64,000 nucleotides of DNA from Patescibacteria group bacterium UBA6241 (GTDB lineage Bacteria > Patescibacteriota > Minisyncoccia > Phycocordibacterales > Phycocordibacteraceae): assembly GCA_002441425.1 (NCBI GenBank), contig DJWB01000001.1, forward strand, positions 224,602 to 288,601. The letters run 5' to 3'. Every line of letters starts with the position of its first letter. Positions within the stretch are counted from its first letter, which is position 1. The translations under genes were made by a program, and so were the position numbers. The notes beneath the pieces were generated by a model. The model had not been told where the DNA came from and did no database searches. It saw nothing but the letters and a program-made list of their open reading frames with translations. Shown piece by piece: positions 3,234-49,185 of the stretch.

Positions 3234-4874
3234 ATGATCTGCCACTATTTCCCAGAACCCCTTTATTTCTTTTACGTAGCTGATCTACCGGGGATTCTTT
3301 ATTATTCCCACATTCCTGCGATTATTTTGGCTCTATTAACAGGAGTTTTTGTACTCCTGAGTGACAGACACTCTCTTCTTAACAAGCTTCTTTTTGGACT
3401 CTGCCTTTCTTTCTCGTTATGGTCTCTCGGAACCCTTATCACATGGACAAACATTCATAGCGATATTCTTCTTTTTGTATGGTCTTTCCTTGGACCAATC
3501 GCAGCATTCATATCAGTACTTTCTATCTACTTCACATATGTTTTCCTGCAAAAGAAAGATGTGGGTCCAAAGCTAAAAGCCATCTTCATAGCACTGCTTG
3601 CGCCGATTCTTGTCTTTGCTGCGACTCCGTACACACTAAGCGGGTTTAATCTGTCAGTGTGTGATGCCTTTGGGTTTGAAGGTCCTGCAAATACTATCTA
3701 TTACCCAGCCCTAGGAGCTGTTGCGCTAGTTTGGATACTTATTCTTTTGATAAGACACTACTACAAAGCCCCTAAAAGCTTTAAATCACAGATCGTAATC
3801 ATGGGAACAGGAATTGAGCTCTTTCTCTTCTCATTCTTCACTATTGGCTTCTTGGGAACTTATTTAACAACTACAGGATTCTTGCCTGACTCTCAGATTG
3901 AGACCTATGGGTATTTCGGGATGATTGTGTTCATGGTCTATATAGGAGTGCTTATAGTTAGGTTTAAGGCCTTCCATGCTGGGCTTATTGCCGCACAAGC
4001 TCTCATTGTTGCGCTCATAATTCTTATTGGTGCTCAGTTCACCTTTGCGAGAAGCACAACCAATCTCACCTTGAATGCAATTGCGTTCTTCTTGACCACT
4101 GTTATTGGATACATTCTCATTAAAAGCGTTAAACGAGAAATAGAGCAGAGAGAGCACATTGAGTTGCTCGCAAAAGATTTGGAGAAATCTAACAGCCAAC
4201 AGATTATCCTTATTCATTTCATTACGCACCAGATTAAGGGATTCGTCACAAAGTCGCGAAACATCTTTGCAACAGTATTGGATGGAGATTATGGAGCCGT
4301 TCCCGAGTCTGTTAAGCCAATGTTGCAAGAGGGTCTCAATTCAGACACAAAGGGTGTTGCGACAATTCAAGAGATTCTTAATGCAGCAAATATTAAGAGT
4401 GGAAAAGTTACGTACGAGAAGCAGGAGATTGACCTTAAAGAACTTGTTGATTCTATCGCAGGGGAATTGAGAGCAAACGCCGACAAGAAAGGACTTACGT
4501 TTACGGTTGAGACTGGAGATGTTCCACTTATGTATTCTGGAGATCGCATGCAGCTCACTAATGCATTTAAGAACCTTATAGACAACTCAATTAAGTACAC
4601 ACCTTCTGGAGAAGTACATGTTTACTTAAGTGAAAAAGAAGGAAGAGTCCACTTTAGAATTACTGATACTGGTGTAGGCATTACCTCAGAAGACATGGAG
4701 CATTTGTTTACTGAGGGAGGACACGGCAAAGATTCTGCGAAGGTAAACGTTGAATCCACAGGATTTGGTCTCTACATCGTGAAGAATATTATTGAGGCTC
4801 ACCACGGGAAGGTCTGGGCTTCTTCAGATGGCGCCGGGAAGGGGGCAAGCTTCATTGTTGAGCTCCCGAAGTAG
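3234..4874 (+). CDS. Membrane sensor histidine kinase (multi-TM sensor domain, HisKA + HATPase_c)
   Basis: About 8 N-terminal TM helices. H-box HFITHQIKGF. G-boxes DTGVGIT and GFGLYIVKNIIEAHHGKVW. The ATG at 3234 follows the upstream stop at 3229-3231. No adjacent response regulator is present. Confidence 0.7.
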   Translation: MICHYFPEPLYFFYVADLPGILYYSHIPAIILALLTGVFVLLSDRHSLLNKLLFGLCLSFSLWSLGTLITWTNIHSDILLFVWSFLGPIAAFISVLSIYFTYVFLQKKDVGPKLKAIFIALLAPILVFAATPYTLSGFNLSVCDAFGFEGPANTIYYPALGAVALVWILILLIRHYYKAPKSFKSQIVIMGTGIELFLFSFFTIGFLGTYLTTTGFLPDSQIETYGYFGMIVFMVYIGVLIVRFKAFHAGLIAAQALIVALIILIGAQFTFARSTTNLTLNAIAFFLTTVIGYILIKSVKREIEQREHIELLAKDLEKSNSQQIILIHFITHQIKGFVTKSRNIFATVLDGDYGAVPESVKPMLQEGLNSDTKGVATIQEILNAANIKSGKVTYEKQEIDLKELVDSIAGELRANADKKGLTFTVETGDVPLMYSGDRMQLTNAFKNLIDNSIKYTPSGEVHVYLSEKEGRVHFRITDTGVGITSEDMEHLFTEGGHGKDSAKVNVESTGFGLYIVKNIIEAHHGKVWASSDGAGKGASFIVELPK

Positions 4875-6972: not shown

Positions 6973-7929
6973 ATGGAATCAGACAAGCCTATTTTGCTCT
7001 CAGGTATCAAACCAACAGGGACCCCCCATATTGGCAATTACTTTGGTGCACTTCGTCAATTTGTAGAATTTCAAACTATTGGCACCCATCAGTGCTATTT
7101 CATGATTGCGGACTACCACGCATTAAACTCAGTCCAGAACGCAGGCCAGATGAGAGAGCTAACTAAGGAGCTTGTTTTAACGTTCTTAGCTATAGGACTT
7201 AATCCAGACAAGGTAGTTATCTTTAAACAGTCTGATGTGCCTGCACACACGGAGCTTGCATGGATTTTTGACACCATCACTACGGTTCCATACCTTATGC
7301 GCGCACATGCATACAAGGATGCAGAAGCAAAAAAGCATGAAATATCTGTAGGCACTTTTAACTATCCAATGCTCATGGCTGCAGATATTCTTTTGTATAA
7401 CGCAGCGAGAGTACCGGTTGGACAGGATCAGAAGCAACATATTGAATACGCGAGAGATACTGCCGAGAAGTTCAACCGTATTTATGGAGAAACCTTTGCG
7501 GTTCCTGAGGAATACATTGTTCCTGACGTTGCTATTGTCCCTGGAATTGACGGGCAAAAGATGAGCAAGAGTTACAACAACACGATCCCTCTCTTTGCGA
7601 GCCGTTCAGAAATTGAAGAGCTAGTTATGAGTATTGTTACAGACTCTTCAGGAGACCGACCTGAGAATGTGTATCAAATGCATAGACTACTCAAGTCTGA
7701 GCATGATTTGGTACCTGTATACGAAGAACATAAAGGAAAGTACAAAGCATTGAAGGAAGCACTCATAGAAGATCTTGATGCGTTCATAAAACCGATGCGA
7801 GAAAGATATGCAGAACTTGCTGCAAATCCTAAGATTGTCTCGGAAACTTTGGAAAAGGGAGCAGAGTTCGCGCGAGCACGTGCTGAGGAGAAAATTGAAG
7901 AGGTACGCAGGGCAGTTGGGGTTGCATAA
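6973..7929 (+). CDS. trpS: Tryptophanyl-tRNA synthetase
   Basis: Motifs GIKPTGTPHIGNYFGAL and KMSKS. Length 318 aa. Confidence 0.9.
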   Translation: MESDKPILLSGIKPTGTPHIGNYFGALRQFVEFQTIGTHQCYFMIADYHALNSVQNAGQMRELTKELVLTFLAIGLNPDKVVIFKQSDVPAHTELAWIFDTITTVPYLMRAHAYKDAEAKKHEISVGTFNYPMLMAADILLYNAARVPVGQDQKQHIEYARDTAEKFNRIYGETFAVPEEYIVPDVAIVPGIDGQKMSKSYNNTIPLFASRSEIEELVMSIVTDSSGDRPENVYQMHRLLKSEHDLVPVYEEHKGKYKALKEALIEDLDAFIKPMRERYAELAANPKIVSETLEKGAEFARARAEEKIEEVRRAVGVA

Positions 7930-8285: not shown

Positions 8286-9635
8286 ATGGAACGGACACTA
8301 ATTGGCGAGCTTTCCGCACACAAAGGAAGCGAGATTTGCATACAAGGATGGGTTGACGTGCGCAGAGACCAAGGGAAACTTGTCTTCTTTGATTTCAGAG
8401 ACAGGAGCGGGATTGTGCAGGGTGTAGTACTTCCAGGAGATGAGAGTCTTATGGAGATAGCTAAAACTGTCCGTACAGAAGCAGTTGTATCTGTGCAGGG
8501 AATTGTTAACGAACGTCCAGAGCGTAACGTACAGGCAGATAAGCTAAACGGAGATATTGAACTTGAAATCAAACGAATAACTATTCTTGCACTCCCACAG
8601 ACTCTTCCATTTGAGCTAGACGCAGAACTTAATCTTGATACGTATCTTGATTATCTCCCACTCACACTTCGCAGCGAGCGCAGTCGCGCAATCTTTACTG
8701 TGCAGGCTGAGATTGTGCGCGCATACCGTGCATTCTTAAACCAGGAAGGCTTTACAGAGTTCCAAGCACCAAAACTTATCGGAGACGATGCTGAGGGCAG
8801 CGGAGAAGTTTTTGAAGTCCCATACTTCTATGGGAAGACTGCGCATCTTGCCACTTCACCTCAGTTGTACAAGCAGATTATGGTTGGGGCATTGGAGCGA
8901 GTCTTTTCTATTGGCATCGTATTCCGCGCTGAGAAGCACAGCACAACAAGACACTTGAATGAGTACACCTCTATGGATATGGAGATGGGCTTCATCAAGG
9001 ACCACACAGATGTCATGGCAGTTGAGAACAAGCTTATGCGCTATGTCTCTGCTGAGCTTGCTAAGAACTGCAGCAAAGAGTTTGCGCTTCTTAAGGCTGA
9101 GGTGCCTGAAGTTCCAGAACGTATCCCAAATCTAAAGTTGCGTGAGGCGCAGGAATTGATTTTTGCAGAGACTGGCAAAGATAAGAGAAATGAACCAGAT
9201 CTTGAGCCGGAAGACGAGCGTTGGCTCTGTGAATGGTCTAAGCGTGAGCACAACTCAGACTTTGTGTTCGTTACGCACTATCCTGTCTCAAAGCGTCCTA
9301 TGTACACCTTTGAAGATTCAACTGATCCGGGATATACAAACGGGTTTGATCTTTTGTTCCGTGGCGTTGAGATAACTACAGGAGGGCAGCGTAGACATGA
9401 CTACGAGAATCTTATTGAAGGAATAAAAATGAAAGGTCTTGATCCTGAGAAGTTTTCTTACTATCTCCAGGCTTTCAAATATGGCATTCCACCGCACGGC
9501 GGATGGGGTATGGGTCTAGAGCGACTCACCGCAAAGTTCCTTAATCTTGCAAACGTTAAGGAGGCAACACTATTCCCACGAGATATTAACCGCATTGATA
9601 CTCGCCTTACGGAGAATGAACCAACTGAAGTATGA
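8286..9635 (+). CDS. aspS: Aspartyl-tRNA synthetase, short archaeal/type-2 form
   Basis: Motifs SPQLYKQ, FRAE, GGWGMGLERL. About 449 aa and lacks the GAD insertion. Confidence 0.85.
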   Translation: MERTLIGELSAHKGSEICIQGWVDVRRDQGKLVFFDFRDRSGIVQGVVLPGDESLMEIAKTVRTEAVVSVQGIVNERPERNVQADKLNGDIELEIKRITILALPQTLPFELDAELNLDTYLDYLPLTLRSERSRAIFTVQAEIVRAYRAFLNQEGFTEFQAPKLIGDDAEGSGEVFEVPYFYGKTAHLATSPQLYKQIMVGALERVFSIGIVFRAEKHSTTRHLNEYTSMDMEMGFIKDHTDVMAVENKLMRYVSAELAKNCSKEFALLKAEVPEVPERIPNLKLREAQELIFAETGKDKRNEPDLEPEDERWLCEWSKREHNSDFVFVTHYPVSKRPMYTFEDSTDPGYTNGFDLLFRGVEITTGGQRRHDYENLIEGIKMKGLDPEKFSYYLQAFKYGIPPHGGWGMGLERLTAKFLNLANVKEATLFPRDINRIDTRLTENEPTEV

Positions 9636-39717: not shown

Positions 39718-40053
39718 TTGACTGACGCATACGTTATTTACCCCGAGCTCTGGGAAGTGAATGAAGGAGCCAAACTAGTGGTCCGCATCTTCCCGAGCGG
39801 AATCCGCAAGATCCGGAAGGATCCGAAGGCTTTCGCATATGGGCTGCTGCGCGCGCAGCTTGAGCTTGGACAGCGCTTTGTCGTCTCATATACAGAGGGT
39901 GTCTTCTTGATTGAAGGCTATGTATGTTCCGCAGTTCGCGGGATAGACATATGGGCGGAAGCTAACACCTTCCTCTGCCTGCTGGATATGTGCACTGGCC
40001 TTACGCTCAGTCCGATTTCTGAGCGCCGGTTCTACAGACGTAAAGCCGCCTAG
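39718..40053 (+). CDS. Hypothetical protein (111 aa) on GC-rich cassette, TTG start
   Basis: GC3-rich codons. Followed by a classic terminator (aacgcacc-tctcttct-ggtgcgtttt). Confidence 0.4.
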   Translation: MTDAYVIYPELWEVNEGAKLVVRIFPSGIRKIRKDPKAFAYGLLRAQLELGQRFVVSYTEGVFLIEGYVCSAVRGIDIWAEANTFLCLLDMCTGLTLSPISERRFYRRKAA

Positions 40054-40105: not shown

Positions 40106-40918
40106 ATGAAGAAGTATGTGGTTATAGAGAAGCCTGTGGGGCAAACTCCTCTGGAGGCCATCCGTGTATATCAGGAGCAGCATCAAGAATATACAGATAT
40201 TCCAATGAGTTATGCGGGCAGACTTGACCCAATGGCTTCGGGAAAGCTTTTAGTACTTATAGGAGAAGAGTGCAAAAGGCAGAAGAAGTATCACGGATTG
40301 GATAAGGAGTATGTAATTGAAGTCGTGCTTGATATCGGAACTGATACCGGAGATGTATTGGGTATGGCAACTCATACAGAGACCAGCTCAAGACCAACAG
40401 AAGGAGAGCTTAAGGATGCACTTTCAAAAGTAACGGGAATTGCTGAAGTTCCCTATCCCGCCTTCTCCTCAAAGACTGTTAATGGGAAGCCATTGTTTCT
40501 ATACTCCCTTGAGGGAAATTTGGATTCAATAGAGATTCCCACACATACAGAGGAAGTTTTCTCAATCACCCCTTTGAAATCTGAATCGGTACCAAGCTCT
40601 GTTCTTCAGAAGCGCATTTCTGAAACTCTGTCCCTTGTTCCTCGTTCAACTGAGCCCTCTAAAGAATTGGGTGCAGACTTTAGACAGGATGCCGTCCGAG
40701 AATCATGGAGGGAGCTTTTCACTGCATATCCAGACAGGACATACTGCGTGTATACGCTTCGCGTTGCGTGTGGATCTGGCACTTACATGCGTACGCTTGC
40801 TGGACGCATTGCACACGTACTTGGAACCAAAGGCTGTGCCCTGTCCATACATCGCACCAAGATTGGGAAAAGAATATCTGTAGCTGGGATTCCTCTTTGG
40901 ATACGGAAGTATACATAA
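40106..40918 (+). CDS. truB: tRNA pseudouridine-55 synthase
   Basis: Catalytic Asp motif YAGRLDPMASGKLLVL. Confidence 0.85.
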   Translation: MKKYVVIEKPVGQTPLEAIRVYQEQHQEYTDIPMSYAGRLDPMASGKLLVLIGEECKRQKKYHGLDKEYVIEVVLDIGTDTGDVLGMATHTETSSRPTEGELKDALSKVTGIAEVPYPAFSSKTVNGKPLFLYSLEGNLDSIEIPTHTEEVFSITPLKSESVPSSVLQKRISETLSLVPRSTEPSKELGADFRQDAVRESWRELFTAYPDRTYCVYTLRVACGSGTYMRTLAGRIAHVLGTKGCALSIHRTKIGKRISVAGIPLWIRKYT

Positions 40919-40922
40919 CGTG

Positions 40923-40950
40923 AAAAAGCGCCACAGGGCGCTTTTTCTTT
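40923..40950 (+). terminator. truB hairpin terminator (agcgcc-acag-ggcgcttttt)
   Basis: Read from the sequence. Confidence 0.6.
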
Positions 40951-40951
40951 G

Positions 40952-41111
40952 GTGAGGAATTACTTACCCTCGCGCGAATCTACTTCGAGAATATTTAGCC
41001 CTCTCACGCCTCGCGGACTCGCGCTCGGGGTTGAATGCATATCTGATTTCTGAATTTAGGAGGGGGGTATGAAAAATGCATTCGGGAAATAAACAGCCCG
41101 GGGCTGTTTGG
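40952..41111. repeat. IR1 left copy (about 160 bp)
   Basis: About 90% identical to the reverse complement of 42982-43158. Begins with gtgagga. Confidence 0.85.
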
Positions 41112-41201
41112 TATTAAGAAAATGTCGCGAGCGCGGCTGGTATTCTGAGGAGAGGATATGAAGCAAAAATCTATGTATCGTGAGGAGTTTTATGAAGAAC
41201 T

Positions 41202-42944
41202 ATGATATATACTTCCTATATCGCCTTAGCTTCACGGAATTCAACCATGTCAAATTTTAACGGTGCTCCGAGACAGTCTGATCCTCTGAAACAGGAGCAG
41301 TTCAATTCTGCGGAAGACAGCGCTTTCGACCAGGCGCGTGAACGCGTCCTTGCGAGAAATAGAGACTTTGTAGAAACCGACAAAAACAGAGAGGAATCAT
41401 TCTCTGCACCTCGAACCGTTCAGGAAGAGCAGGATGATATAGAATGGAAAAATTTGCTCCTAAACACCGAAGCTACACTCGGGAGCATTGGTAACCCAGA
41501 CCAACGTAAGTTACTACAAGCAAACCCTGTTATGGCAAATGATGCTACGTATTTCTTAGCATCACAGACTTCGAGCTGGATAGATAGTAGGCATCTTGCC
41601 AAGAATATTCCTGACGATGTTCAGGAAGTGTGGAGGAGTGCGGAAAAGGATGACCGAAAACTTTTTGTTGAGACCGGTAAGCGCCTTTATCCTGAAGTGG
41701 AGCTTTCGTCTAACAATGTTGATACGATTTTTGGAACCCTTAAGAACGATGCCATGAAGTTCAGTAGCAAGGAACTAAAAGATTGGCTTCAAGATTTTCC
41801 TGTGCATGGAGCTGCCAACAGTTCCATGAATGGAAGTCCTGATAAGTTCCTAAGTCAGGTTGAATCCTTTATTCAAAGAGGAGCGGACAGTATCGGGAGA
41901 GCACGCAAGAGCAGTGACCCTGTTACATCAATGGAAATCGCAGCCGTTGGAAAAGGTCTATACGCGCTCGAACTACTCAGACAAGATCTGGAGCAACGCG
42001 TCCAAGAGAGAAAGGAGCCAAAAATTCAACATGGTGCTCTTAATACTGATGAAGAACTTCGTCGCAAAGCTGCGGAGCTCAGTAAATTAAATATTAGTGG
42101 AGAAATGAGCGCAGACACCAAGGCAAAACTTGAGGCTCACAGAGCAAAAATGGGGCTGTCTGTTTCTCCCGAAGTGCAACAAGGAATTCCAGTTTCTGAG
42201 GTAGACCCAGTTCGACCAGAAGCTACCTCTGAAGAGCATCCAAACACCCCGCAAACGCCAGGAGAAAAATTCTTTGCAGCGAAGGAAGCGGAACTCAAGG
42301 GAAACATCCAGAGCTTCTTTGAAGAGGAGAACGCGGAGTTCTCAAAAGTAGAGGTAAGCGGTCCTGCTTTTGTTGAGAATCCTGAAAAGCTTGAGATGAA
42401 GAAGGATTCGCTTCAGAGGGCTGAAGCACTCGTAAAAAGACTTCTCGATCCTAAATCTGCTGAAGACATCCGGGACAACTGGTTGGAGAATATAGACGAG
42501 ACAAATAATCTTTCGCAGTTTTTTACTAATGCGCTGACAAAAGAGATTCAGGGCAGCAGAACTGCGCCAAAGGAAGGAGGCAGTAGGAATATTGCCAGCT
42601 CTCTATTTAAGGAAATCATTCACAAGCGCCTGTATCCTTACCTGTCACCGTTGCCGCCTGCAGCTACCCTAAGTTCCAGAGGATTCGAACAGTTTAAAAA
42701 CCCCGCTCTTAAATACTGGGGAGAATCACTTACTAATGATGGTTTGACGGTTAACGAACCGGAAGCCCTGTTAGAAAAACTTGAAAGTGCGATTACTCAC
42801 GCCGCAAGTCAATTAGAGCTCGCACAGAGCGATACAGTGAATCCTCCTACCTCACTGGAATTAAGAATGGTTGGAGAACGCATTTTAGGCATAGAGCTAC
42901 TTAGAAGTGCCATAAAACAAAAACTTGAGCTTAGGAATCAGTAA
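41202..42944 (+). CDS. Large acidic hydrophilic protein of unknown function (580 aa), cargo bracketed by IR1
   Basis: Long ORF with no TM segment and no recognisable catalytic motif. Glu/Lys-rich helical character. The alternative start is Met16. Confidence 0.5.
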   Translation: MIYTSYIALASRNSTMSNFNGAPRQSDPLKQEQFNSAEDSAFDQARERVLARNRDFVETDKNREESFSAPRTVQEEQDDIEWKNLLLNTEATLGSIGNPDQRKLLQANPVMANDATYFLASQTSSWIDSRHLAKNIPDDVQEVWRSAEKDDRKLFVETGKRLYPEVELSSNNVDTIFGTLKNDAMKFSSKELKDWLQDFPVHGAANSSMNGSPDKFLSQVESFIQRGADSIGRARKSSDPVTSMEIAAVGKGLYALELLRQDLEQRVQERKEPKIQHGALNTDEELRRKAAELSKLNISGEMSADTKAKLEAHRAKMGLSVSPEVQQGIPVSEVDPVRPEATSEEHPNTPQTPGEKFFAAKEAELKGNIQSFFEEENAEFSKVEVSGPAFVENPEKLEMKKDSLQRAEALVKRLLDPKSAEDIRDNWLENIDETNNLSQFFTNALTKEIQGSRTAPKEGGSRNIASSLFKEIIHKRLYPYLSPLPPAATLSSRGFEQFKNPALKYWGESLTNDGLTVNEPEALLEKLESAITHAASQLELAQSDTVNPPTSLELRMVGERILGIELLRSAIKQKLELRNQ

Positions 42945-42981
42945 ATCGAACCTTCCATTCAAAACTATAAGGTGGGAATTT

Positions 42982-43158
42982 TCCACAAAGCAGCCCGAGA
43001 CATTGTCTCGGGCTGCTTTGTTCCCGAATGCATTTTTTCATACCCCCCTCCTAAATTCAGAAATCAGATATGCATTCAACCCCGAGCGCGAGTCCGCGAG
43101 GCGCGAGAGGGCTAAGTATTCTCGAAATGGGTTCGCGCGAGGGTTAGGAGTTCCTCAC
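42982..43158. repeat. IR1 right copy (inverted), includes an extra 12-bp-stem palindrome
   Basis: Hand alignment to 40952-41111 in reverse complement. Confidence 0.85.
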
Positions 43159-43283
43159 AAAAAGATACTTCCTCGGAAGATAGTTCGGAATACAATCCCG
43201 CCCATGGCGGGATTGTATTCATTTTCGCGCGCAGACGCGCGGCATTCTCAGACGGCGGGGATACTCTGAAATGCATGGATTTG
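43155..43283. repeat. IR2 left copy (129 bp) containing a 33-bp perfect palindrome (43188-43220) and a GC palindrome (43226-43241)
   Basis: Identical to the reverse complement of 44719-44847. Confidence 0.9.
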
Positions 43284-43330
43284 CACTTCTCTTTCGAGCC
43301 ATACCGTCGCAAGTGATACCATGCAAAGAT

Positions 43331-44875
43331 ATGGCACCGAGATATTTTCTCTACGCGCGCAAAAGTACCGAGCCGGACGACAAGCAAGCGATGAGTATTC
43401 CGGCGCAGCTCGTTGAGTTGCGAGAGTTCGCGCGGAGAGAAAACCTGAATATTGTCAGTGAGTACACTGAATCAAAAAGCGCAAAGACACCGGGACGCGA
43501 TGTGTTTGGCGATATGATGATGCGTCTTGAGCGCGACGAAGCCAACGGAATAATCGCGTGGCATCCCGATAGGTTGGCGAGAAACAGCATTGACGGTGGG
43601 CGCATCATATACGCCGTAGACACGGGCAAGATCGTGTCGTTGCGCTTTCCGACATTCTGGTTTGAACCCACGCCACAGGGTCTATTTATGCTTCAGGTGG
43701 CGTTCGGGCAGTCCAAGTACTATTCAGATAACCTCGGCGAGAACACGAGGCGTGGGATGCGGCAGAAACTGCGTAGAGGCGAGTGGCTCACAAAAGCGCC
43801 GTTCGGGTATACCAACAACCCTAAAACCCGCAATATCGAGCCGGACGCGGTAAAAGCAAAAATCATCGTTCGCGCTTTTGACGAGTACGCAACCGGAAAA
43901 TATACGCTCGTTTCCATGGCGCAGTTTCTCCAAGACCTCGGCATCACGACCAAAGCCGGAACACAGCTCGGCAAAGCGTCCATAAAGCGCATTTTGACGA
44001 ATCGTGCATACCTCGGCTTTACGAAACACCTCGGCGAATTCTTTCCCGGCTCGTTCGCTTCGATTATCACTTCAACGCAGTTTGAAGCGGTGCAAAATAT
44101 CCTCGCAAAACGCGAGCATCGCTACAAACGCCGTCAAAGGAACGATTTCCCGTTTACCAATCTTTTTCGCTGCACTGAGTGTACGTCTATGTACACGGCG
44201 CAATGGACAACTGGAAAATCTGGCGGACGCTATCGCTACTACCGTTGCACGAAAAAGAAAGGAAACTGCACATCAGGCTATGTGCGCGAGGATATATTGC
44301 TCGCGCAAATTCAAGAGCGGATCGAAAGCATCTCGCTTCGCGATAGGCATACGGGCTGGATGTTGAACAAGGTGGACGAGTGGGAGCGCAAAGAAAATAG
44401 TTCCAACGGGAGCGAGATACAAAATCTTTCTTCCAAGATATCAGCGAGCGAAGAGCGCATGGACAAACTGGTTTCCGCATACCTGGACGGCGATATCCCC
44501 AAGCCAATCTATTTGAAGCGGAAAGACGAAATTATGCGCGCTCTCGCCTCGCTGAACGAAGAAAAGAAAGATTTCGAGAACGGAAAGAAAAAGTGGGTCG
44601 AACCCTTGCGTGCGTGGGTTCTAGACACCAAACAAGCCATGGAATTGAGTTCGTCCGACAACTTGCACGAAATCTCCGCTTTCGTCAGGAAGGTCGGAAC
44701 GAACCCCCGTATTGAATACAAATCCATGCATTTCAGAGTATCCCCGCCGTCTGAGAATGCCGCGCGTCTGCGCGCGAAAATGAATACAATCCCGCCATGG
44801 GCGGGATTGTATTCCGAACTATCTTCCGAGGAAGTATCTTTTTGTGACCTCACGGGGAATCGAACCCCGATTTGA
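43331..44875 (+). CDS. Large serine recombinase (resolvase catalytic domain + recombinase domain + zinc ribbon + coiled coil)
   Basis: N-terminal YFLYARKSTEPDD...SIPAQ catalytic Ser region, Cys cluster CTECT...YRCTKKKGNC, and a coiled-coil tail. The ATG at 43331 is internal to the tool ORF. The ORF reads through IR2 and 30 nt into tRNA-Glu before its first stop, so the true C-terminus is uncertain. Confidence 0.8.
   Translation: MAPRYFLYARKSTEPDDKQAMSIPAQLVELREFARRENLNIVSEYTESKSAKTPGRDVFGDMMMRLERDEANGIIAWHPDRLARNSIDGGRIIYAVDTGKIVSLRFPTFWFEPTPQGLFMLQVAFGQSKYYSDNLGENTRRGMRQKLRRGEWLTKAPFGYTNNPKTRNIEPDAVKAKIIVRAFDEYATGKYTLVSMAQFLQDLGITTKAGTQLGKASIKRILTNRAYLGFTKHLGEFFPGSFASIITSTQFEAVQNILAKREHRYKRRQRNDFPFTNLFRCTECTSMYTAQWTTGKSGGRYRYYRCTKKKGNCTSGYVREDILLAQIQERIESISLRDRHTGWMLNKVDEWERKENSSNGSEIQNLSSKISASEERMDKLVSAYLDGDIPKPIYLKRKDEIMRALASLNEEKKDFENGKKKWVEPLRAWVLDTKQAMELSSSDNLHEISAFVRKVGTNPRIEYKSMHFRVSPPSENAARLRAKMNTIPPWAGLYSELSSEEVSFCDLTGNRTPI
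44719..44847. repeat. IR2 right copy (inverted); its last 3 nt overlap the tRNA-Glu 3' end
   Basis: 129/129 identity to 43155-43283 in reverse complement. The palindrome sits at 44782-44814. Confidence 0.9.
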
Positions 44876-44916
44876 TCCGTGAGAGGGATCTGTCCTAACC
44901 GTTAGACGATGAGGCC
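44845..44916 (-). tRNA. tRNA-Glu (anticodon CTC), no encoded CCA
   Basis: Hand-built cloverleaf: acceptor ggcctca/tgaggtc, D-arm identical in layout to E. coli tRNA-Glu, anticodon loop ctCTCac, T-loop ttcgatt. Confidence 0.85.
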
Positions 44917-44958: not shown

Positions 44959-46230
44959 CTACCGACGCTTCCACTCACGTTCTTGGCGAACGAGACGCGA
45001 TGCATCTTCAGGGTTTCTGAGAAGCGCCTCAGATACCCGCTCCATACGCACAGACTGGGAACCTTTAACAAGAACCACATCATTTTCTGATACGAGATCA
45101 ACAAGGAGTGTCGCTGCATCCTGAGCTGTATCAACTGCATACGCCGCATCTTCAGAAAGTCCTGCTGTCTTCGCAGCTTCATAGGTAGCGCGCGAACGAA
45201 CACCCACAGCAACGAGCATGTCTGCCTTTTGGGCAACAAGAGTTCCAATTCGCGCGTGCTCTTCCTGAGAGTATCTTCCAAGCTCCAACATATCTCCCAA
45301 AACTGCGATACGTCTTCCCTTCTGCGGTATAAGAGAAAGCGAAGAAAGACCTTCTTCAACTGCTGCAGGAGATGCGTTGTATGAGTCGTCAATAATGTAC
45401 GAGTTGTGTATACCTAGAAGAACTCGTGCACGTCCAGGAGGAGCTACGTAGTTTGCAAGACCTGCAAGAACATCAGCGCGAGAGATGTTTAATGCCTTTG
45501 CAAGTGCCAGCGCTGCTGCTGGCGCATACAACTGAGGCCTTCCGAGTGCTCCTTGTACCTTAATCTCTTCGTTATCAATCTGTGCACGCATACCGCTCGC
45601 TTCTCCTTCAGCATAAAACTCAGGGCTGGCAATGCAGATGTCTGCATCTTTTGAGAATCCAAATGTAGTTACGGAAACAGGAAGTCTTGCTGCCATTGTC
45701 TTTGCATATGTATCCTCTGCACAAATAATCAACGGAGCTTCCGGGTTAAGCGCATACGCGGGAGTGAATTCTTCGTCTCGCACCGCCTGTGGTCCTTCAT
45801 ATGCCTCAACATGTACAGGCACATCGGGAAGTCTCGTGACAACAACTGCATCAGGCTTTGCAATGCGAAGAATTCGTTTTAGGTCTCCAGGCCTGTCTGC
45901 GCCAACTTCTAGAATTAGAAGCTTTGGATAGTGGCTTGGCAGCATGATAAGTGCGAGCGCTTCTTGGAATACGCCGAACCATGCAGCGGGATTCTCCCAA
46001 GGGTTCTTTGCACCGATAACCGTAAGAGGAAGTCCGAATTCGCTGTTATAGCTTTTCTCGCTTGCTCTCAGGAAATGGGTCTCAGAAAATGCCGCGGCGA
46101 GTGCGTCTTTCGTAGAGGTCTTCCCTACGCTTCCTGTAACCATAACTATCTGGGGCTGGTACTTGTTTAGAATCGCTCGCGCAAGAATGGCGAGAAATAC
46201 TGCTACCGGAGCTTTTAGGAGCTTTTTCAT
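44959..46230 (-). CDS. murF: UDP-MurNAc-tripeptide--D-Ala-D-Ala ligase (Mur ligase family)
   Basis: P-loop GSVGKTSTK and DDSYNASP signature. Confidence 0.75.
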   Translation of the reverse strand: MKKLLKAPVAVFLAILARAILNKYQPQIVMVTGSVGKTSTKDALAAAFSETHFLRASEKSYNSEFGLPLTVIGAKNPWENPAAWFGVFQEALALIMLPSHYPKLLILEVGADRPGDLKRILRIAKPDAVVVTRLPDVPVHVEAYEGPQAVRDEEFTPAYALNPEAPLIICAEDTYAKTMAARLPVSVTTFGFSKDADICIASPEFYAEGEASGMRAQIDNEEIKVQGALGRPQLYAPAAALALAKALNISRADVLAGLANYVAPPGRARVLLGIHNSYIIDDSYNASPAAVEEGLSSLSLIPQKGRRIAVLGDMLELGRYSQEEHARIGTLVAQKADMLVAVGVRSRATYEAAKTAGLSEDAAYAVDTAQDAATLLVDLVSENDVVLVKGSQSVRMERVSEALLRNPEDASRLVRQEREWKRR

Positions 46231-47960
46231 AGACTAGATGCGTATTCTGCCCTATCTGGCGGAATTTCGTAATAGTTAATCAAAAAGTGTGTGAGATCCA
46301 TGAATGGGTGTGTGAGCGTCTCAGATGCATACTGCACATTCTGTGGCTCACGTGTATACAAGAGAATAATGAACTTCGGATCGTACGCTGGGAAATACCC
46401 GAAGAATGAGTGGAAGTATCTTCCTTCTGCATACTTCCCGCCTGGCCCTGCAATCTGTGCTGTTCCTGTCTTTGCAGCGACACTCATCTCTGGAATACGA
46501 ACCGTTCCATTCGCAAGCTTTAGATCAACAACGTTAACCAACATGCGCGTAGTTTCTGCTGTTGCCTCAGCACCAAACACTCGTTCAGGCTGCCCCCATG
46601 ACAACTTCTTTTCAATACCAGATTCAAGACGCACCGAGCGGACAAGATGCGGGGTTACGATCTGTCCCTGATTTGCGAGAGCTGCGAGCGCACGCACCAT
46701 CTCAATGGGTGTTTGCGCGATACCCTGCCCGTACGAAGCAGTTGCGTATTCAATATCGCGAGGACTCGTTTCAATGTTGTCCAAGCTTCCTGAAATCTCA
46801 CTCGGCAAATCAATACCAGTTTCAGTCCCCATACCTAAATCCTTGAAATAGTGACGCATCTTTTCGTGCCCTACCTGGAGTGCGATGTATGCAGCTCCCA
46901 TGTTTAAAGACTGAGACAGTACTTGCTGCATTGGCGTTACACCGCGCGCCTTAAGGTCGTAATTGCAGAACGTCTTGTTATTAAGTGTTGTACACCCCGT
47001 ATCGTTATACGTTGAGTTAGCGGTTACTGCTCCTGAATCAAGCCCCGCTGCCATGGTGAGCGCTTTAACAATAGAACCGAACTCATACCGGTGCTCAACA
47101 AGAGGATTTCCAAAGTGCGTAGAGTCTCCATTCGCAAAATCATTCGCATTAAATGAAGGGGCTGTATCAAGTGCGATTATCTCCCCAGTCTTAGGGTCCA
47201 TGATGATTCCACCGGTCTCTCTACTTCCGTATTGAGTATTAACACTGAGGAGAATCTGATCCAGCTTTTCTTGCACCACTGGCTCAATTGTTGTTATAAG
47301 GTCTCCTTCGCGTGTCTCTCTTGCGTCAACAACAACACTATCAATGTTCGCAAAGAGTTCTGAAAAGAAGTTCCCAAACAATCCAACTGAGCCGCGACTT
47401 AATACATCGTTGTAGTAGCGCTCAAGTCCAAACCGCCCCGCAAGAGTATCGTCATCATCAAACGCAACAAATCCAATAGATTGTGCCGCACGTGTACTTC
47501 CTGGATAGGATCGCCATCGCTCTCGCTCCAGCTGTATACCCTCAATCTCAAGTGCTTCAATTGCCTGTCCCTGTTCTTCAGACACACGCTTTGCAACAAC
47601 TTCGTATGGATCGTCCGTACGAGCTGCTGACTCCATAAATACCGCCTCCTCAATAGGAATAATTGCAGAAAGCGCAGCATATGCTGCGCCTGGATCGGTT
47701 AGTCTCTTTGGTGTCATAGCAACGGTAAAGCCATTTGAAAGCGTCGCTGCTGAAATGATGGTGCCGTCCTTCCTGGTGAAATAAATACTTCCACGATCAT
47801 ACAGCTCCTGGCTCGCGGAAATGTATTGTCGTTCAGCACGTAGTGCAAAATCTGCACCATGAACTACTTGTACGAAATAAAGACGAGTTATGAGAAGTGC
47901 AGCAACAAGAATCAACCCAATGGATAGAATGCGCAGCCGTCCTCGTATCGCCCTACGCAT
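46227..47960 (-). CDS. ftsI: Division transpeptidase PBP (FtsI-like)
   Basis: N-terminal TM anchor and motifs SIVK, SQSLN-like, KTGTAQ. Confidence 0.85.
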   Translation of the reverse strand: MRRAIRGRLRILSIGLILVAALLITRLYFVQVVHGADFALRAERQYISASQELYDRGSIYFTRKDGTIISAATLSNGFTVAMTPKRLTDPGAAYAALSAIIPIEEAVFMESAARTDDPYEVVAKRVSEEQGQAIEALEIEGIQLERERWRSYPGSTRAAQSIGFVAFDDDDTLAGRFGLERYYNDVLSRGSVGLFGNFFSELFANIDSVVVDARETREGDLITTIEPVVQEKLDQILLSVNTQYGSRETGGIIMDPKTGEIIALDTAPSFNANDFANGDSTHFGNPLVEHRYEFGSIVKALTMAAGLDSGAVTANSTYNDTGCTTLNNKTFCNYDLKARGVTPMQQVLSQSLNMGAAYIALQVGHEKMRHYFKDLGMGTETGIDLPSEISGSLDNIETSPRDIEYATASYGQGIAQTPIEMVRALAALANQGQIVTPHLVRSVRLESGIEKKLSWGQPERVFGAEATAETTRMLVNVVDLKLANGTVRIPEMSVAAKTGTAQIAGPGGKYAEGRYFHSFFGYFPAYDPKFIILLYTREPQNVQYASETLTHPFMDLTHFLINYYEIPPDRAEYASSL

Positions 47961-47963
47961 AGA

Positions 47964-48242
47964 TTAGCGGCGTGAAAGCGCAGGTGCTTGTGCCTTAACT
48001 GCATAGCTCACGGAAACCGGTGCAACGAGCCCTAGAGAGCTTGGCTTCGCGGCGTCAATCTCGGAAACCATTTGGTAGTAAGTATTCTCAAGTTGCGCAA
48101 TCTTCCCTTCAGTTACATGCACCTCAACAGCAAGGTCTGTCTGCCACGCAGCTAGAGAGACCGTTACGATAATGAGAGCTAGGTATGCCACAACCAGAGC
48201 TGCACAAGAATATCCAAGAATTGAAATGGTTCGGTCAGGCAT
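47964..48242 (-). CDS. ftsL: FtsL-like small bitopic division protein
   Basis: TM segment plus a short coiled coil between rsmH and ftsI. Start taken at an internal Met; the tool ORF (to 48407) overlaps rsmH. Confidence 0.45.
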   Translation of the reverse strand: MPDRTISILGYSCAALVVAYLALIIVTVSLAAWQTDLAVEVHVTEGKIAQLENTYYQMVSEIDAAKPSSLGLVAPVSVSYAVKAQAPALSRR

Positions 48243-49185
48243 ACACAGGAAAGGAATGAAGATTAATAGATTTTTTTGGTGCAGGGGCTCCTGCTTCAAA
48301 CACACGCAACTTTGCACTACGCGCACGAGGATTTGCTTTGCACTCCGCCTCTGAAGGCACGAGGGGCTTACGAGACACCAAAGTGCCCTGCCCAGCCTGA
48401 GCTGCATCGCGGAACATGCCTTTCACAATCCGGTCCTCAATGCTGTGGAAAGTAATGACCGCAACACGTCCTGCATCTGGAACGCGCGTGAGCGCCGCTC
48501 CTACTCCCTCGCGAATAGCACCGAGTTCGTCATTTGTTGCGATGCGTAGTGCTTGGAATGTTTTTGTCGCTGGATGAAGACGGCGATGCTTGTACCAAGC
48601 TGGTGTCCCTGCTTCTATAGCGCTCACCAACTGGTGCGTAGTGCTAATTTCAGCTTCTTCCCTCGCCTCCACGATGCTCTTTGCAATTTTTCGTGAAAAT
48701 CGTTCTTCTCCTAGAGACCAAAGGAGATCTGCGAGAGATTCCTCAGAGAGATGGTTTACGAGATCACCTGCAGTTGTTGCAGTCTCTGGGTCTCCATACG
48801 TCATGAGAAGAGGCTCGTCAGCACGAAATGAGAATCCTCTTCCGTTTGCAAGCTGAAACCCACTCCATCCAAGATCAAAGAGGATCTTCGTGGGAGTAAG
48901 CTTCTGCTCGTCCAAAATCTCAGCAAGATCACGGAAGTTTCCATTTACGAGACGCACATCAGGACGTGATTCTTCTGGGGTTTCATCAACTACTGCTTGA
49001 GCTCGTACGAGCGCATCAGCATCTGCATCAATTCCCACGAGCACACCATCCTTTCCGAGCTTCTTTAGAAGTTCACGGAAGTGTCCTGCGCCTCCAAGAG
49101 TTGCATCAACTACTACGTCGTCAGGCTGCACCAAAAGCGCGTCTACGGATTCATTTAGGAGAACGGTTTCGTGACGAGCTTCCAT
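48235..49185 (-). CDS. rsmH: 16S rRNA m4C1402 methyltransferase
   Basis: N-terminal VLLNESVDAL...DATLGGAGH. Confidence 0.9.
   Translation of the reverse strand: MEARHETVLLNESVDALLVQPDDVVVDATLGGAGHFRELLKKLGKDGVLVGIDADADALVRAQAVVDETPEESRPDVRLVNGNFRDLAEILDEQKLTPTKILFDLGWSGFQLANGRGFSFRADEPLLMTYGDPETATTAGDLVNHLSEESLADLLWSLGEERFSRKIAKSIVEAREEAEISTTHQLVSAIEAGTPAWYKHRRLHPATKTFQALRIATNDELGAIREGVGAALTRVPDAGRVAVITFHSIEDRIVKGMFRDAAQAGQGTLVSRKPLVPSEAECKANPRARSAKLRVFEAGAPAPKKSINLHSFPVYA

Follow-up and report, generated by a model that had tools for sequence, protein, structure and literature searches.

The segment 40948-44847 of the window (the whole 64-kb stretch of Patescibacteria DNA analysed here) is probably a small mobile element in its integrated state, made up of a gene for a large serine recombinase (LSR) and a single cargo gene. 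This 3.9-kb element lies at the 3' end of a tRNA-Glu gene and has the layout A - cargo - A'|B - LSR - B', where A and A' are the arms of one inverted repeat (IR1) and B and B' those of another (IR2). It is one member of a very large Patescibacteria LSR family, of which species-representative genomes contain at least 588 loci. An earlier note on this DNA had considered an undescribed LSR-borne cassette with long terminal inverted repeats; indeed, our literature search turned up no published description of this family of small integrase-plus-cargo elements, and, to our knowledge and from the same search, no described LSR element combines an internal attP with IR-bracketed modules. Here we argue that the likely nature of the element is that of a tRNA-targeting unit of recombinase and cargo.

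Anatomy of the element

The features are as follows (positions in the window).

40921-40947: chromosomal flank with the hairpin terminator after truB, gaaaaagcgccacagggcgctttttc (sequence read)
40948-41100: IR1-L, arm A; left end of the element, putative inverted copy of the left (P) arm of attP
40948-40955: core copy in arm A, TTTGGTGA, within IR1-L
40967-40980, minus strand: decayed P-arm motif in arm A, GATTCGCGCGAGGG
41202-42944, plus strand: cargo gene for a 580-aa orphan protein (ORF)
42985-43021: 37-nt local palindrome immediately downstream of the cargo stop codon, reaching into the inner end of A' (self-complementary, 97%)
43009-43162: IR1-R, arm A'; its last ~45 nt are the family-conserved P arm
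43130-43143: P-arm motif in A', GGTTCGCGCGAGGG; GTTCG starts 24 nt before the repeat boundary
43155-43162: junction J, where A' meets B, with the shared core TCACAAAA (three-junction comparison)
43155-43283: IR2-L, arm B; holds the putative P' half-site
43167-43171: ACTTC of the P' half-site in arm B, offset 12 from the boundary
43188-43220: GC-rich hairpin in arm B
43226-43241: second hairpin in arm B
43331-44875, plus strand: LSR gene (Pfam domains, homologue alignment)
44719-44847: IR2-R, arm B'; bounds the element on the right, its outer tip and the tRNA 3' end together making up the putative attL
44844-44916, minus strand: tRNA-Glu(CUC), integration target and putative left arm of attB (Rfam, 59.3 bits)
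44861-44865 (plus-strand CGAAC): T-loop GTTCG of tRNA-Glu, starting 18 nt from the repeat boundary

Both repeats are far beyond chance, as can be judged from the blastn E-values of the repeats (2e-64 and 5e-56). The IR2 arms (43155-43283 and 44719-44847) are 129 nt long and, as noted earlier, identical at 129/129 positions in inverted orientation (100% complementary). The IR1 arms share a 129-nt core match (40948-41076 and 43034-43162, 93%) plus a 29-nt extension, which blastn merges into 40948-41100 and 43009-43162 (154 nt, 91.6% identity). Hence, the previous estimate of about 90% over some 160 bp was essentially right, its coordinates being off by a few to ~27 nt; in particular, the IR1-R start at 42982 took in the separate local palindrome at 42985-43021, which is probably the terminator of the cargo gene. 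IR1-R and IR2-L overlap by 8 nt (43155-43162), and tRNA-Glu(CUC) overlaps IR2-R by 4 nt, not 3 as first counted. Mismatches amount to 13/154 in IR1 versus 0/129 in IR2 (Fisher p = 3e-4), with 8 of the 13 falling in the outer 50 nt, and the P-arm motif of arm A is mutated (GATTCG in place of GGTTCG). Because IR1 has decayed and the left-end motif is altered, the window copy may have lost its mobility as a complete unit. A blastn search revealed no further copy of IR1, IR2 or the LSR gene elsewhere within the 64-kb window, but the equivalent layout is found in relatives.

A family of elements at tRNA genes

An IR pair of 107-146 bp (median 131 nt) surrounds the LSR gene in 70 of 80 loci from GTDB species representatives. 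Of the 77 pairs scored over all loci, 58 reach an identity of 98% or more. A second pair, of 160-430 bp, surrounds variable cargo and adjoins the first with an overlap of 4-9 nt; it was counted in 17 loci with enough upstream sequence, and in locus L097. The 3' end of a convergent tRNA overlaps arm B' in 58 loci, usually by 4 nt, and 6 further loci have a convergent tRNA with no IR call. The targets are tRNA-Glu, -Ser, -Arg, -Gly and -Leu, with insertion at the discriminator/CCA position. The suggestion that the segment is an element integrated at a tRNA is supported. A strong hairpin lies ~35-65 nt from the core in every member, and the elements, 3.6-6 kb in size, contain no phage, replication or transfer genes. 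Loci L064 and L033 hold tandem arrays, and in L092 and L093 two additional cassettes, both lacking an LSR gene, stand between the LSR gene and the tRNA. The multi-cassette arrays of L092 and L093 have palindromic inter-cassette repeats.

When long repeats are found in metagenomic DNA, a reality check is important: could the repeats or the gene order come from a mis-joined assembly, as the earlier note allowed? The window derives from a k141 metagenome contig, and assemblies often break in these repeats: the JGI contigs L002 and L003 terminate within IR2-L, and the first bases of many GTDB contigs fall in A' or B. However, the same architecture is seen in the 70 of 80 independent assemblies, which stem from many projects and assemblers, and in complete or near-complete chromosomes (CP060229, twice, and OY970382); IR1 of the window, being only 91.6% identical, is not a collapsed duplicate; and the decayed IRs examined retain 94% identity in their outer 20 nt versus 84% in the inner part. 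Since the layout recurs across loci and in such chromosomes, an artefact is, for all practical purposes, ruled out.

A probable attachment site inside the element

The two IR pairs, previously taken as separate features, appear to belong together as the halves of a single composite sequence (A'+B) that has an attP-like site at its middle. The left side of junction J matches the left-end junction and its right side matches the tRNA junction, with identity switching within TCAC, and in each locus a core of 4-6 nt is common to all three junctions. Judging from this pattern, A'|B is likely an intact attP-like site, with the end of A' as the P arm and the start of B as the P' arm; B' against the tRNA is, by the same logic, probably attL, and the flank against A is probably attR. 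The crossover would fall within TCAC, at 43155-43158. The flank 40921-40947 would then represent the distal (B') arm of the original attB: joined to the tRNA across the shared core, it would restore ...GGTCA-CCA-AAG, that is, a tRNA-Glu gene that encodes its CCA and has the hairpin behind it.

The left arm of the central junction contains a mimic of the tRNA T-loop, GGTTCGCGC, placed 6 bp farther from the core than the real T-loop (GTTCG starting 24 versus 18 nt from the boundary). At least 42 of 55 loci show this outward shift of GTTCG by 6 bp, 45 of 54 have ACTTC at an offset of 12, and nearly all have the motif GGTTCGCGCAAAGG upstream of arm B. In the sites of the LI integrase, the zinc-ribbon motif of attB is nearer to the centre than that of attP, by 5 bp (PMC3783163). 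The T-loop offset would roughly correspond to this kind of attP/attB offset known for LSRs. The IR pairs would stand back to back because the internal attP, with ~130-300 bp on each side, recurs, split and inverted, at the element ends. Canonical LSRs need ~50 bp, so that site recognition does not explain repeats of 130-430 bp.

The recombinase and the cargo

The Pfam search matched PF00239, PF07508 and PF13408, in agreement with the expected set of PF00239, PF07508 and a zinc ribbon; specifically, the protein has a resolvase catalytic domain with the YARKS serine, a recombinase domain and a Cys4 zinc ribbon with a coiled-coil insert. No LSR from curated phages or plasmids is more than ~30% identical to it, and it scores below every NCBIfam cut-off. 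The distant sequence matches are SprA/YokA (E = 1e-11), CcrB and XisF, and the match to the IS607 model is marginal (E = 4e-4, 20 bits versus a cut-off of 110).

The alignment of homologues places the true start at 43331 (MAPRYFLYARKS), not at 43271. The reading frame does run through IR2-R into the tRNA, as had been noticed, with the stop codon at 44873-44875, 32 nt into the tRNA. The conserved protein, however, ends near 44718 (~residue 462), and the codons from 44719 on lie in IR2-R and then in the tRNA. Whereas pN/pS is 0.16-0.37 in the core, it is 0.46-1.06 in the tail, which displays no third-position excess, is absent in L006 and is frameshifted in L007. Accordingly, the claim of a partly repeat-encoded C-terminus holds for the reading frame and not for a constrained protein: to judge from these patterns, the tail is unconstrained read-through.

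The cargo ORF, coding for 580 aa, is as first described. Its product has no Pfam, NCBIfam or PADLOC match, finds only itself among 5.8 billion clusters, and has three distant relatives (26-34% identity) among 1.84 billion representatives. Across the family, the cargo varies and is exchanged between relatives.

Orientation of the modules

The arrangement could be envisaged as two independently invertible flip-flop modules, a candidate named in the earlier note, with the LSR acting as invertase on the central site and either end and causing phase variation of cargo and/or LSR expression. Near-perfect IRs bracket each module and their tips carry conserved LSR half-site motifs; the LSR module occurs in nature in both orientations, flipped copies being rare (L091, L025, L088); the cargo, too, lies either opposite to the LSR gene (~18 of 20 loci) or on the same strand (the window and L042); and the combination of a perfect IR2 with a decayed IR1 in the window suggests ongoing exchange between B and B'. 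The orientations are, however, strongly biased: among the 65 species-representative loci with a called tRNA, the LSR gene points towards the tRNA in 64 (~64:1), and the ratio for the cargo is ~18:2, whereas a working switch should often show both states. Furthermore, inversion between perfect IRs would leave the 130-300 bp up- and downstream of each gene unchanged, so that an ON/OFF effect is not obvious, and LSRs without a directionality factor have been reported to recombine only attP with attB (PMC3783163). The cargo flip in L086 and L087 may be an arbitrary traversal of the assembly graph because the A arm exceeds k = 141. The bias does not support frequent flip-flop, and free inversion of the two modules is quite improbable. 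Still, L091 (tRNA-Ser(+) > B > LSR > B' > A) is not an assembler collapse, its IR being only 87% identical, and the rare flipped copies imply occasional inversion, or occasional integration by way of the other repeat copy.

Horizontal spread and exchange of cargo

The LSR of the window and that of L006 share 79% identity, as compared to 37% for MurF and 34% for PBP. Between the window and L097, which share the truB | tRNA-Glu | murF site, pS is 0.51 for the LSR gene versus 0.81-0.85 for host genes; the cargo is unrelated, and beyond the ~45-nt P arm, towards the interior, the A arms are different. Across species, six loci (four GTDB species representatives and the metagenome contigs L090 and L091) show 92-95% DNA identity in the backbone A'+B+LSR+B'; they lie at different tRNA-Ser isoacceptors where a tRNA was called and have different cargo where seen. 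LSR modules are found at different tRNAs and in several copies per genome. Comparison of relatives thus shows the backbone to move horizontally and the cargo to be swapped.

These data bear on two further scenarios. The first is a fixed, immobile remnant, that is, an ancient insertion, domesticated or decaying, the repeats of which persist only by gene conversion and have no present function. IR1 and the left P-arm motif have indeed decayed in the window, the cargo is an orphan gene, and an empty truB | tRNA-Glu site was looked for and not found. However, the LSR gene has an intact reading frame and evolves under purifying selection (pN/pS ~0.2), IR2 is perfect, the LSR pS relative to L097 is well below that of host genes, and the family shows recent spread. 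The remnant scenario is unlikely, and it could hold for the window copy alone, leaving the nature of the family unchanged.

The second scenario posits a resident LSR platform at the tRNA (B-LSR-B' plus the P arm) that hosts exchangeable, non-autonomous, IR-bracketed cargo cassettes in an integron-like fashion, the cassettes being inserted or replaced either by an LSR acting in trans or, following uptake of DNA, through homologous recombination within the shared arms. The comparison of the window with L097 (related LSR modules at the same site, unrelated cargo, A arms differing beyond the P arm) fits it, as does the L014/L015/L018/L027/L090 lineage, in which the A arms and the LSR gene are 92-95% identical and the cargo differs where seen (L027, L090), and so do the extra cassettes in L092 and L093 and the tandem arrays in L064 and L033. 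Yet the LSR modules are clearly mobile, given their different tRNAs, multiple copies per genome and low pS, and neither free circles of a cassette nor junctions made by a cassette alone were identified. A resident platform is conceivable, if rather doubtful; it overlaps with the mobile tRNA-targeting unit that we favor and does not exclude it.

Comparison with known systems

The closest counterparts are the large serine integrases (LI/A118, Bxb1, phiC31, SPbeta SprA, XisF and CcrAB of SCCmec), which have the same domain set, a short shared core instead of long direct repeats, and a distal motif about half a helical turn farther out in the attP than in the attB arm. Unlike them, the present family targets tRNA 3' ends of several isotypes, consists of 3.6-6 kb elements without phage, replication or transfer genes or an evident directionality factor, and appears to retain an internal attP, with modules bracketed by near-identical IRs of 110-430 bp. 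In Tn4451 (TnpX), Tn5397 (TndX) and IS607, an LSR or serine transposase is likewise the sole mobility gene, and the elements excise to a circle whose joined ends are the recombination site; these, however, have short, imperfect end similarity, a relaxed target choice (GA dinucleotide), and no tRNA specificity, internal second site or long IRs.

Tycheposons of Prochlorococcus are also small cargo elements with a site-specific integrase at tRNA genes of streamlined genomes, with variable cargo, tandem arrays and a minority that carry a large serine recombinase; however, 910 of 937 use tyrosine recombinases, many have replication genes, partial tRNA direct repeats flank them, and the double inverted-repeat layout is not reported for them (bioRxiv 10.1101/2020.12.28.424599). 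In Hin/Gin/Pin invertons, a serine recombinase gene lies inside an IR-bounded segment, as hin does in the H segment, but the enzymes are ~190 aa with a C-terminal HTH, the sites are ~26 bp, an enhancer and Fis are needed, and both orientations are common, traits that the window element lacks. The earlier observation that the locus fits neither a direct-repeat tRNA island nor a Hin/Gin inverton is upheld. Integrons share variable single- or few-gene cargo adjoining the recombinase gene and multi-cassette arrays (here L092 and L093); nevertheless, IntI is a tyrosine recombinase acting on folded single-stranded attC, the integron platform is neither tRNA-targeted nor mobile like the LSR element, and the cassettes of the latter have long terminal IRs.

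A possible mechanism

By our leading inference, the element, when free, would be circular and would have two attP repeats in inverted orientation: one copy of X = A'+B and its inverse would stand between the LSR segment and the cargo segment. The 3923-bp contig L090 (cargo, X of 399 bp, LSR and a 100% identical X') holds one circle's worth, and 13 of 120 LSR clusters, none of them on a contig longer than 4.1 kb, have an ORF that continues from B' into an A arm. Long perfect IRs could, by fold-back traversal of the assembly graph, also have given rise to the circle-like contigs (L086, L087 and L090), and in L087 the A'|B evidence spans only 6 nt. If real, such a circle would resemble the yeast 2-micron plasmid, with its two long IRs, two unique segments between them, a recombinase gene on the molecule and a target site inside each repeat, although FLP is a tyrosine recombinase and the plasmid replicates and does not integrate. 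Recombination of attP with attP is not known for LSRs.

Integration would proceed through the X copy at the 3' end of the LSR gene, leaving the other copy as the internal site, and homologous gene conversion would keep the arms nearly identical. No directionality factor is evident in the two-gene element, which leaves excision without an explanation. As two identical attP copies should integrate equally in both orientations, the ~64:1 ratio needs an extra assumption: selection or a cis preference might keep the LSR gene free of transcription from the tRNA or the cargo. Finally, the LSR may recognize the tRNA T-arm and acceptor end as an attB arm, in which case the use of many different tRNAs by this family would follow.

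Architecture of the element

Between truB and tRNA-Glu(CUC), the window carries an element that, according to ORF calling, contains two genes only, namely a cargo gene and the gene of a large serine recombinase (LSR), each enclosed by its own pair of long inverted repeats. The cargo pair (IR1) consists of the arms A and A' and the LSR pair (IR2) of the arms B and B', so that the order is A, cargo, A', B, LSR, B' and the tRNA gene; the central A'/B junction is denoted J, the composite repeat A'+B is denoted X, and its inverted copy X'.

Features of the element and its flanks (window coordinates)
ends at 40918: truB (PF01509), with a hairpin terminator directly after it
40948-41100 and 43009-43162: IR1 (arms A and A'), 154 nt, 91.6% identity
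41202-42944: cargo ORF, 580 aa, between the IR1 arms
43155-43162: overlap of the inner arms A' and B, 8 nt, TCACAAAA
43155-43283 and 44719-44847: IR2 (arms B and B'), 129 nt, perfect
43331 (true start, from homologues) to the stop at 44873-44875, 32 nt within the tRNA: LSR ORF
44844-44916, minus strand: tRNA-Glu(CUC), overlapping the right arm of IR2 by 4 nt

The perfect inverted repeat around the LSR that had been claimed in the earlier note is confirmed over all its 129 nt. The repeat around the cargo is real as well, although its coordinates and its length (154 nt) had to be corrected; similarly, the right arm of IR2 does overlap the tRNA end, by 4 nt rather than 3, and the LSR frame does run into the tRNA, its stop lying 32 nt inside. 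No further copy of IR1, IR2 or the LSR is present elsewhere within the 64-kb window. With a GC content of 0.48, the element does not differ from the host. The direct core repeat at the element ends comprises 8 nt and is imperfect (TTTGGTGA / TTTTGTGA). Mismatches are found at 13 of the 154 positions of IR1, concentrated in the left-end P arm, the arm of the attachment site described below, as compared to none of 129 in IR2 (p = 3e-4); given this decay, the window copy may be partly disabled.

An Rfam-type search of the repeats for RNA families yielded sub-threshold chance matches only, and a promoter and terminator scan of the element gave counts no higher than expected from shuffled sequence. 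Within arm A (41068-41092, with the inverted copy in 43017-43041), a Shine-Dalgarno-like AGGAGGGGGG precedes a 7-codon mini-ORF, MKNAFGK, which may be a chance occurrence or a leader of the cargo gene. Outside of the element and unrelated to it, a 111-aa ORF (39718-40053) that is also a gene call in JGI contigs lies between yqeY and truB; no family match was found for it.

The recombinase and its repeat-encoded tail

An HMM search, as had been proposed for checking the recombinase, recovered the full LSR domain set: the catalytic domain PF00239 (E = 2.3e-21, residues 26-172 of the 534-aa call), PF07508 (8.9e-13) and PF13408 (1.2e-10). The YARKS motif with the serine nucleophile is invariant across 32 homologues, as are the zinc-ribbon residues Cys281, 284, 306 and 313; behind them, about 100 aa are rich in heptads and would form the coiled-coil insert. 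With a length of about 462-514 aa and LSR-type C-terminal domains, the enzyme has the defining features of large serine integrases. By sequence it is remote from all characterised ones: the comparison with SprA gives E = 1e-11, CcrB and XisF fall below their cut-offs, and the best relative in curated phage and plasmid collections shares at most about 30% identity.

The start chosen by the gene caller, 43271, lies inside the left arm of IR2 and yields the 534-aa product, whereas all homologues begin at the equivalent of 43331 (M-x-KPKYFLYARKS); hence, database entries of this family often have spurious N- and C-terminal extensions encoded by the repeat and the tRNA. In most relatives, which are cited here by locus or contig handles such as L006, the ORF passes through B' into the tRNA, and the apparent tail motifs are DNA features translated as codons: the spurious GNRTP is the T-arm, and EVSxC and PSxFVAxRR are the P' half-site and a GC-rich hairpin. 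That the right arm of IR2 might encode a functional C-terminal tail was considered and is ruled out, since from codon 463 or so pN/pS is 0.46-1.06 without third-position excess, as compared to 0.16-0.37 in the core, and since the tail is absent in L006 and frameshifted in L007. Therefore, the functional LSR ends at the repeat boundary.

Serine integrases catalyse the attP x attB reaction unidirectionally, and excision requires a directionality factor. No candidate for such a factor is visible in the two-gene element of the window. In one sub-lineage, the cargo modules repeatedly have a small Xre-family HTH gene at one of their ends (L086:3562-3768, L090:1449-1667 and the cassettes of L092 and L093), and these genes could be regulators or directionality factors; the element in the window has no Xre-type HTH gene.

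A widespread family with a common layout and tRNA targets

When 8,000 candidates were scored, more than 6,500 relatives of the LSR (protein clusters) were retrieved. The top 120 are 61-88% identical to it; few of these are named by source, and most of the names given are Paceibacterota or other Patescibacteria. Scanning a single genome for each species gave at least 588 loci, often several per genome, of which 80 were analysed in detail for their layout. An inverted repeat pair of 107-146 nt surrounds the LSR in 70 of these 80, and of the 77 pairs scored over the whole set of loci, 58 have an identity of 98% or more. In 58 loci out of 80, the 3' end of a convergent tRNA reaches into the outer arm, mostly by 4 nt, and six further loci have a convergent tRNA without a repeat call; L025 is the sole locus among the 80 where the tRNA is upstream and co-directional. 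The targets are tRNA-Glu(ctc/ttc) in 28 loci, tRNA-Ser with five different anticodons in 23, tRNA-Arg in four, tRNA-Leu in two and tRNA-Gly in one.

Where at least 2.5 kb of upstream sequence exists, a second inverted repeat pair could be scored; it was found in 17 loci and in the related genome L097, measures 160-430 nt, is mostly 98-100% identical, usually abuts the first pair with a 4-9 nt overlap, and encloses 1-5 kb of cargo. The same layout is seen in the complete or near-complete chromosomes CP060229 (twice) and OY970382 and is, therefore, no assembly artefact. Many contigs end within the repeats, as would be expected of repeats that exceed the k-mer of the assembler.

Several genomes harbor two or three copies, and tandem arrays are found in L064, L033, L092 and L093. 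In the array of three LSR elements in L064, two 191-bp spacers (3942-4132 and 7517-7707) that separate non-identical elements are 100% identical, and each opens with a degenerate tRNA-Ser 3' fragment beside arm B'. A second variant of the P arm, ACATTCGAACTTTGT, occurs to the right of B' at L033:7508-7560 and at the junctions J1 and J3 of L064, and in L033 arm B' of one element abuts the A arm of another. These arrangements suggest that new elements can insert at a resident attR, targeting its tRNA-mimic P arm. In L093 (4618-9589) and L092 (6790-13150), the LSR is followed by two LSR-less cassettes and then by tRNA-Leu, an order that resembles an integron array; each cassette ends in an Xre-type HTH gene of 67-68 aa, with GC-rich palindromic repeats of about 75 nt between the cassettes. 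A 127-bp direct repeat in L093 (1-127 = 9463-9589) includes an apparently intact attB beside the tRNA.

In the window (44959-48407) and in nine relatives (L005, L006, L036, L041, L057, L060, L078, L097 and L098), tRNA-Glu(ctc) lies directly upstream of the murF - PBP - rsmH - mraZ (dcw) cluster. This site carries an LSR element in many distant species and is thus an insertion hot spot.

Attachment sites and proposed target recognition

In each locus, a core of 4-6 nt is common to the left end (flank/A), to J and to the right end (B'/tRNA). The core varies with the target, being TCAC(A) at tRNA-Glu, CCGCA at tRNA-Ser and GCACA at tRNA-Gly, -Leu and -Arg, and covers the last base of the acceptor stem, the discriminator and the first bases of the tail. 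The left side of J is the same as that of the left end, and its right side is the same as that of the tRNA junction, which makes the right end attL (tRNA arm plus B), the left end attR (A' arm plus flank) and J an undivided attP, with the P arm at the end of A' and the P' arm at the start of B; read from the tRNA, this attP lies in inverted orientation. If the window flanks were joined across the core, ...GGTCA-CCA-AAG would be regained ahead of the truB hairpin, giving a tRNA-Glu whose CCA is encoded and whose terminator is shared; the empty site is predicted to read ...GCGCTTTTTCTTTGGTGACCTCACGGGG... Metagenome-wide pattern scans for such a site (truB terminator or 3' end, a short gap, tRNA-Glu 3' end) returned no match, so that the insertion boundaries are drawn from the junction comparison only.

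The last 45 nt or so of A' are conserved in the family and contain GGTTCGCGCAAAGG. The distance from the start of GTTCG to the repeat boundary is 24 nt in the P arm, as compared to 18 nt in the T-loop of the tRNA, an outward shift of 6 bp that is found in at least 42 of 55 loci, with 11 others mis-scored on a nearby GTTAG. In the LI integrase system, the motif of the zinc-ribbon domain is 5 bp nearer to the centre in attB than in attP (PMC3783163). The short core common to attP and attB in LSR systems and the offset of the distal motif between the two sites are both found here, although the shift is 6 bp, not 5. We infer that the LSR reads the T-arm of the tRNA as an attB arm, the P arm being a T-loop mimic at attP spacing; such recognition would explain the use of many different tRNAs.

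On the other side, the start of arm B is marked by an ACTTC that is conserved at offset 12 in 45 of 54 loci. In decayed B arms, the outer 20 nt remain 94% identical as compared to 84% in the inner part, so that both half-site copies seem to matter. A B-type TTCG spacing in the P' arm was also considered but proved confined to one lineage and is not general. Each arm B by itself folds into a strong hairpin; an RNAalifold run for covariation in this hairpin predicted no more than 7 pairs, with the alignment slipping in register.

Orientation bias, flipped copies and circle-like contigs

Of the 65 species-representative loci with a called tRNA, 64 have the LSR facing it. In about 18 of 20 loci, LSR and cargo lie on opposite strands, the exceptions being the window and L042. 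A freely flipping switch would not be expected to show such a bias, nor would orientations chosen arbitrarily by an assembler. Flipped copies do exist: L091 reads tRNA-Ser(+), B, LSR, B', A, and this assembly can be trusted because its arms are only 87% identical, while L025 and L088 hold similar flipped copies. Of the two readings offered in the earlier note, that of an integrated LSR cassette without a found description stands, and that of independently invertible modules is unlikely. In L025, a second copy of a 46-nt stretch containing the 5' part of tRNA-Glu lies 200 nt upstream of the first (2035-2080 and 2235-2280), which suggests an earlier rearrangement at this tRNA.

In 13 of 120 LSR clusters, all on contigs of at most 4.1 kb, the LSR ORF reads from B' into an A arm, with an ARTHF-like motif. 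The 3923-bp contig L090 consists of exactly cargo, X (399 bp, A'+B), LSR and X' (100% identical), as would a circle with two inverted X copies; this match is no more than suggestive, as the same contig could result from an assembly graph folding back at perfect repeats. The pair L086 and L087 was set aside as proof of cargo inversion, the A arm being longer than the assembler's k-mer and the orientation perhaps arbitrary. In L089, which lacks arm B, the sequence upstream of the LSR (1-119) matches the 3' coding region of the LSR (1449-1567) in reverse complement; this contig is probably a fold-back chimera from an inverted repeat, a warning against trusting short contigs of the LSR family.

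Mobility and cargo

Between genomes, the LSR is much better conserved than the housekeeping genes next to it: the LSR of the window and that of L006 are 79% identical, as compared to 37% for MurF and 34% for PBP. Similarly, L097 carries an element at the identical truB/tRNA-Glu/murF site, with both repeat pairs 100% identical; its LSR is 85% identical to that of the window, with pS of 0.51 versus 0.81-0.85 (saturated) for host genes, whereas the cargo is unrelated and the A arms diverge inward of the P arm. In another lineage, A'+B+LSR+B' is 92-95% identical at the DNA level across six loci, of which four are from GTDB species representatives and two are the metagenome contigs L090 and L091; these backbones sit at different tRNA-Ser isoacceptors where a tRNA was called and carry different cargo where cargo is seen. 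Taken together, these comparisons indicate that the backbone spreads horizontally and that the cargo is exchanged. Across loci, the cargo includes ABC-transporter genes, a pilin-like gene, ATPase/methylase-like sets, a 694-aa cytochrome-domain protein and many unknowns; the 580-aa cargo of the window is an orphan, with no family match and no informative homologue.

Comparison with known systems

The Hin/Gin invertases are serine recombinases of about 190 aa with a C-terminal HTH, 26-bp sites and an enhancer, and both orientations are common. Here, by contrast, the LSR has about 462-514 aa, the repeats measure 129-154 nt, and among species representatives the two orientations of the LSR module relative to the tRNA stand at 64:1. 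Classical tRNA islands and prophages employ a tyrosine integrase and are bounded by direct repeats of a tRNA 3' segment (15-50 bp), whereas this recombinase is of the serine type and the long repeats are inverted. The earlier view that the element fits neither of these models is, therefore, upheld. Integrons combine the tyrosine recombinase IntI with attI and attC-bounded cassettes; the element has no tyrosine recombinase, and its cassettes end in long inverted repeats with LSR half-site motifs. A phage or plasmid was rejected, given the two-gene content, the lack of IMG/VR relatives and the identity of at most about 30% in curated collections, and the likeness of the inferred circle to the 2-micron plasmid is one of topology only. 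Tycheposons are tRNA-linked cargo islands of streamlined marine genomes that, unlike the present element, mostly use tyrosine integrases and partial-tRNA direct repeats (bioRxiv 10.1101/2020.12.28.424599); in function, they are the closest analogues described. No published description of such LSR elements was found in open-access full text, and an earlier description beyond it is possible.

A possible mechanism

We regard it as established that the element is integrative, driven by the LSR, and targets tRNA 3' ends through a reaction of attP (J) with attB. The free form can be envisaged as a circle with an LSR segment and a cargo segment, kept apart by X on one side and its inverted copy on the other. 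Integration through the X copy at the 3' end of the LSR would split that copy into the terminal A and B', and the other copy would stay intact as J. Since two identical attP copies should integrate equally both ways, the 64:1 bias needs an added assumption: either the X copy traversed by the LSR ORF would be preferred in cis, or there would be selection against configurations that let tRNA or cargo transcription enter the LSR gene. We infer that the orientation biases of the LSR and of the cargo follow one shared logic.

The identity of the arms within an element, set against their rapid divergence between lineages, requires concerted evolution, for which homologous gene conversion suffices in principle; the variable lengths of arm A would fit repeat expansion and contraction. 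It is tempting, if rather speculative, to view these elements as a new minimal self-contained class in CPR bacteria, a circle of 3.6-6 kb with two inverted attP-bearing repeats and an integrase reading the universal T-loop/acceptor end of tRNAs, in which the long repeats are mechanistic; we consider this doubtful. If the long, concertedly evolving repeats have a mechanistic role, this could be to let either copy serve for integration, to flip or amplify the circle, to make a separate directionality factor dispensable for excision, or to permit orientation-free cassette exchange after natural transformation.

Implications for Patescibacteria

An intact internal attP, with both modules within long near-identical inverted repeats whose arms far exceed the length of an att site, is an unusual architecture for a serine integrase and raises questions of directionality because no partner factor is visible. 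We regard the interest of these elements as high, owing to their prevalence in CPR bacteria, the T-loop-mimic att logic and the long repeats; apparent generic recognition of the tRNA T-arm by a serine integrase could also interest integrase engineers. The repeats systematically break short-read CPR assemblies beside tRNA genes, so that cargo is easily lost from bins. Patescibacteria (CPR) comprise a large share of bacterial diversity and have tiny genomes; to our knowledge, descriptions of their mobile elements are few. The small cargo islands found here at tRNA genes throughout Patescibacteria are due to one highly conserved integrase family, which, considering its size and the range of its cargo, is plausibly a major route of gene flow in these bacteria.
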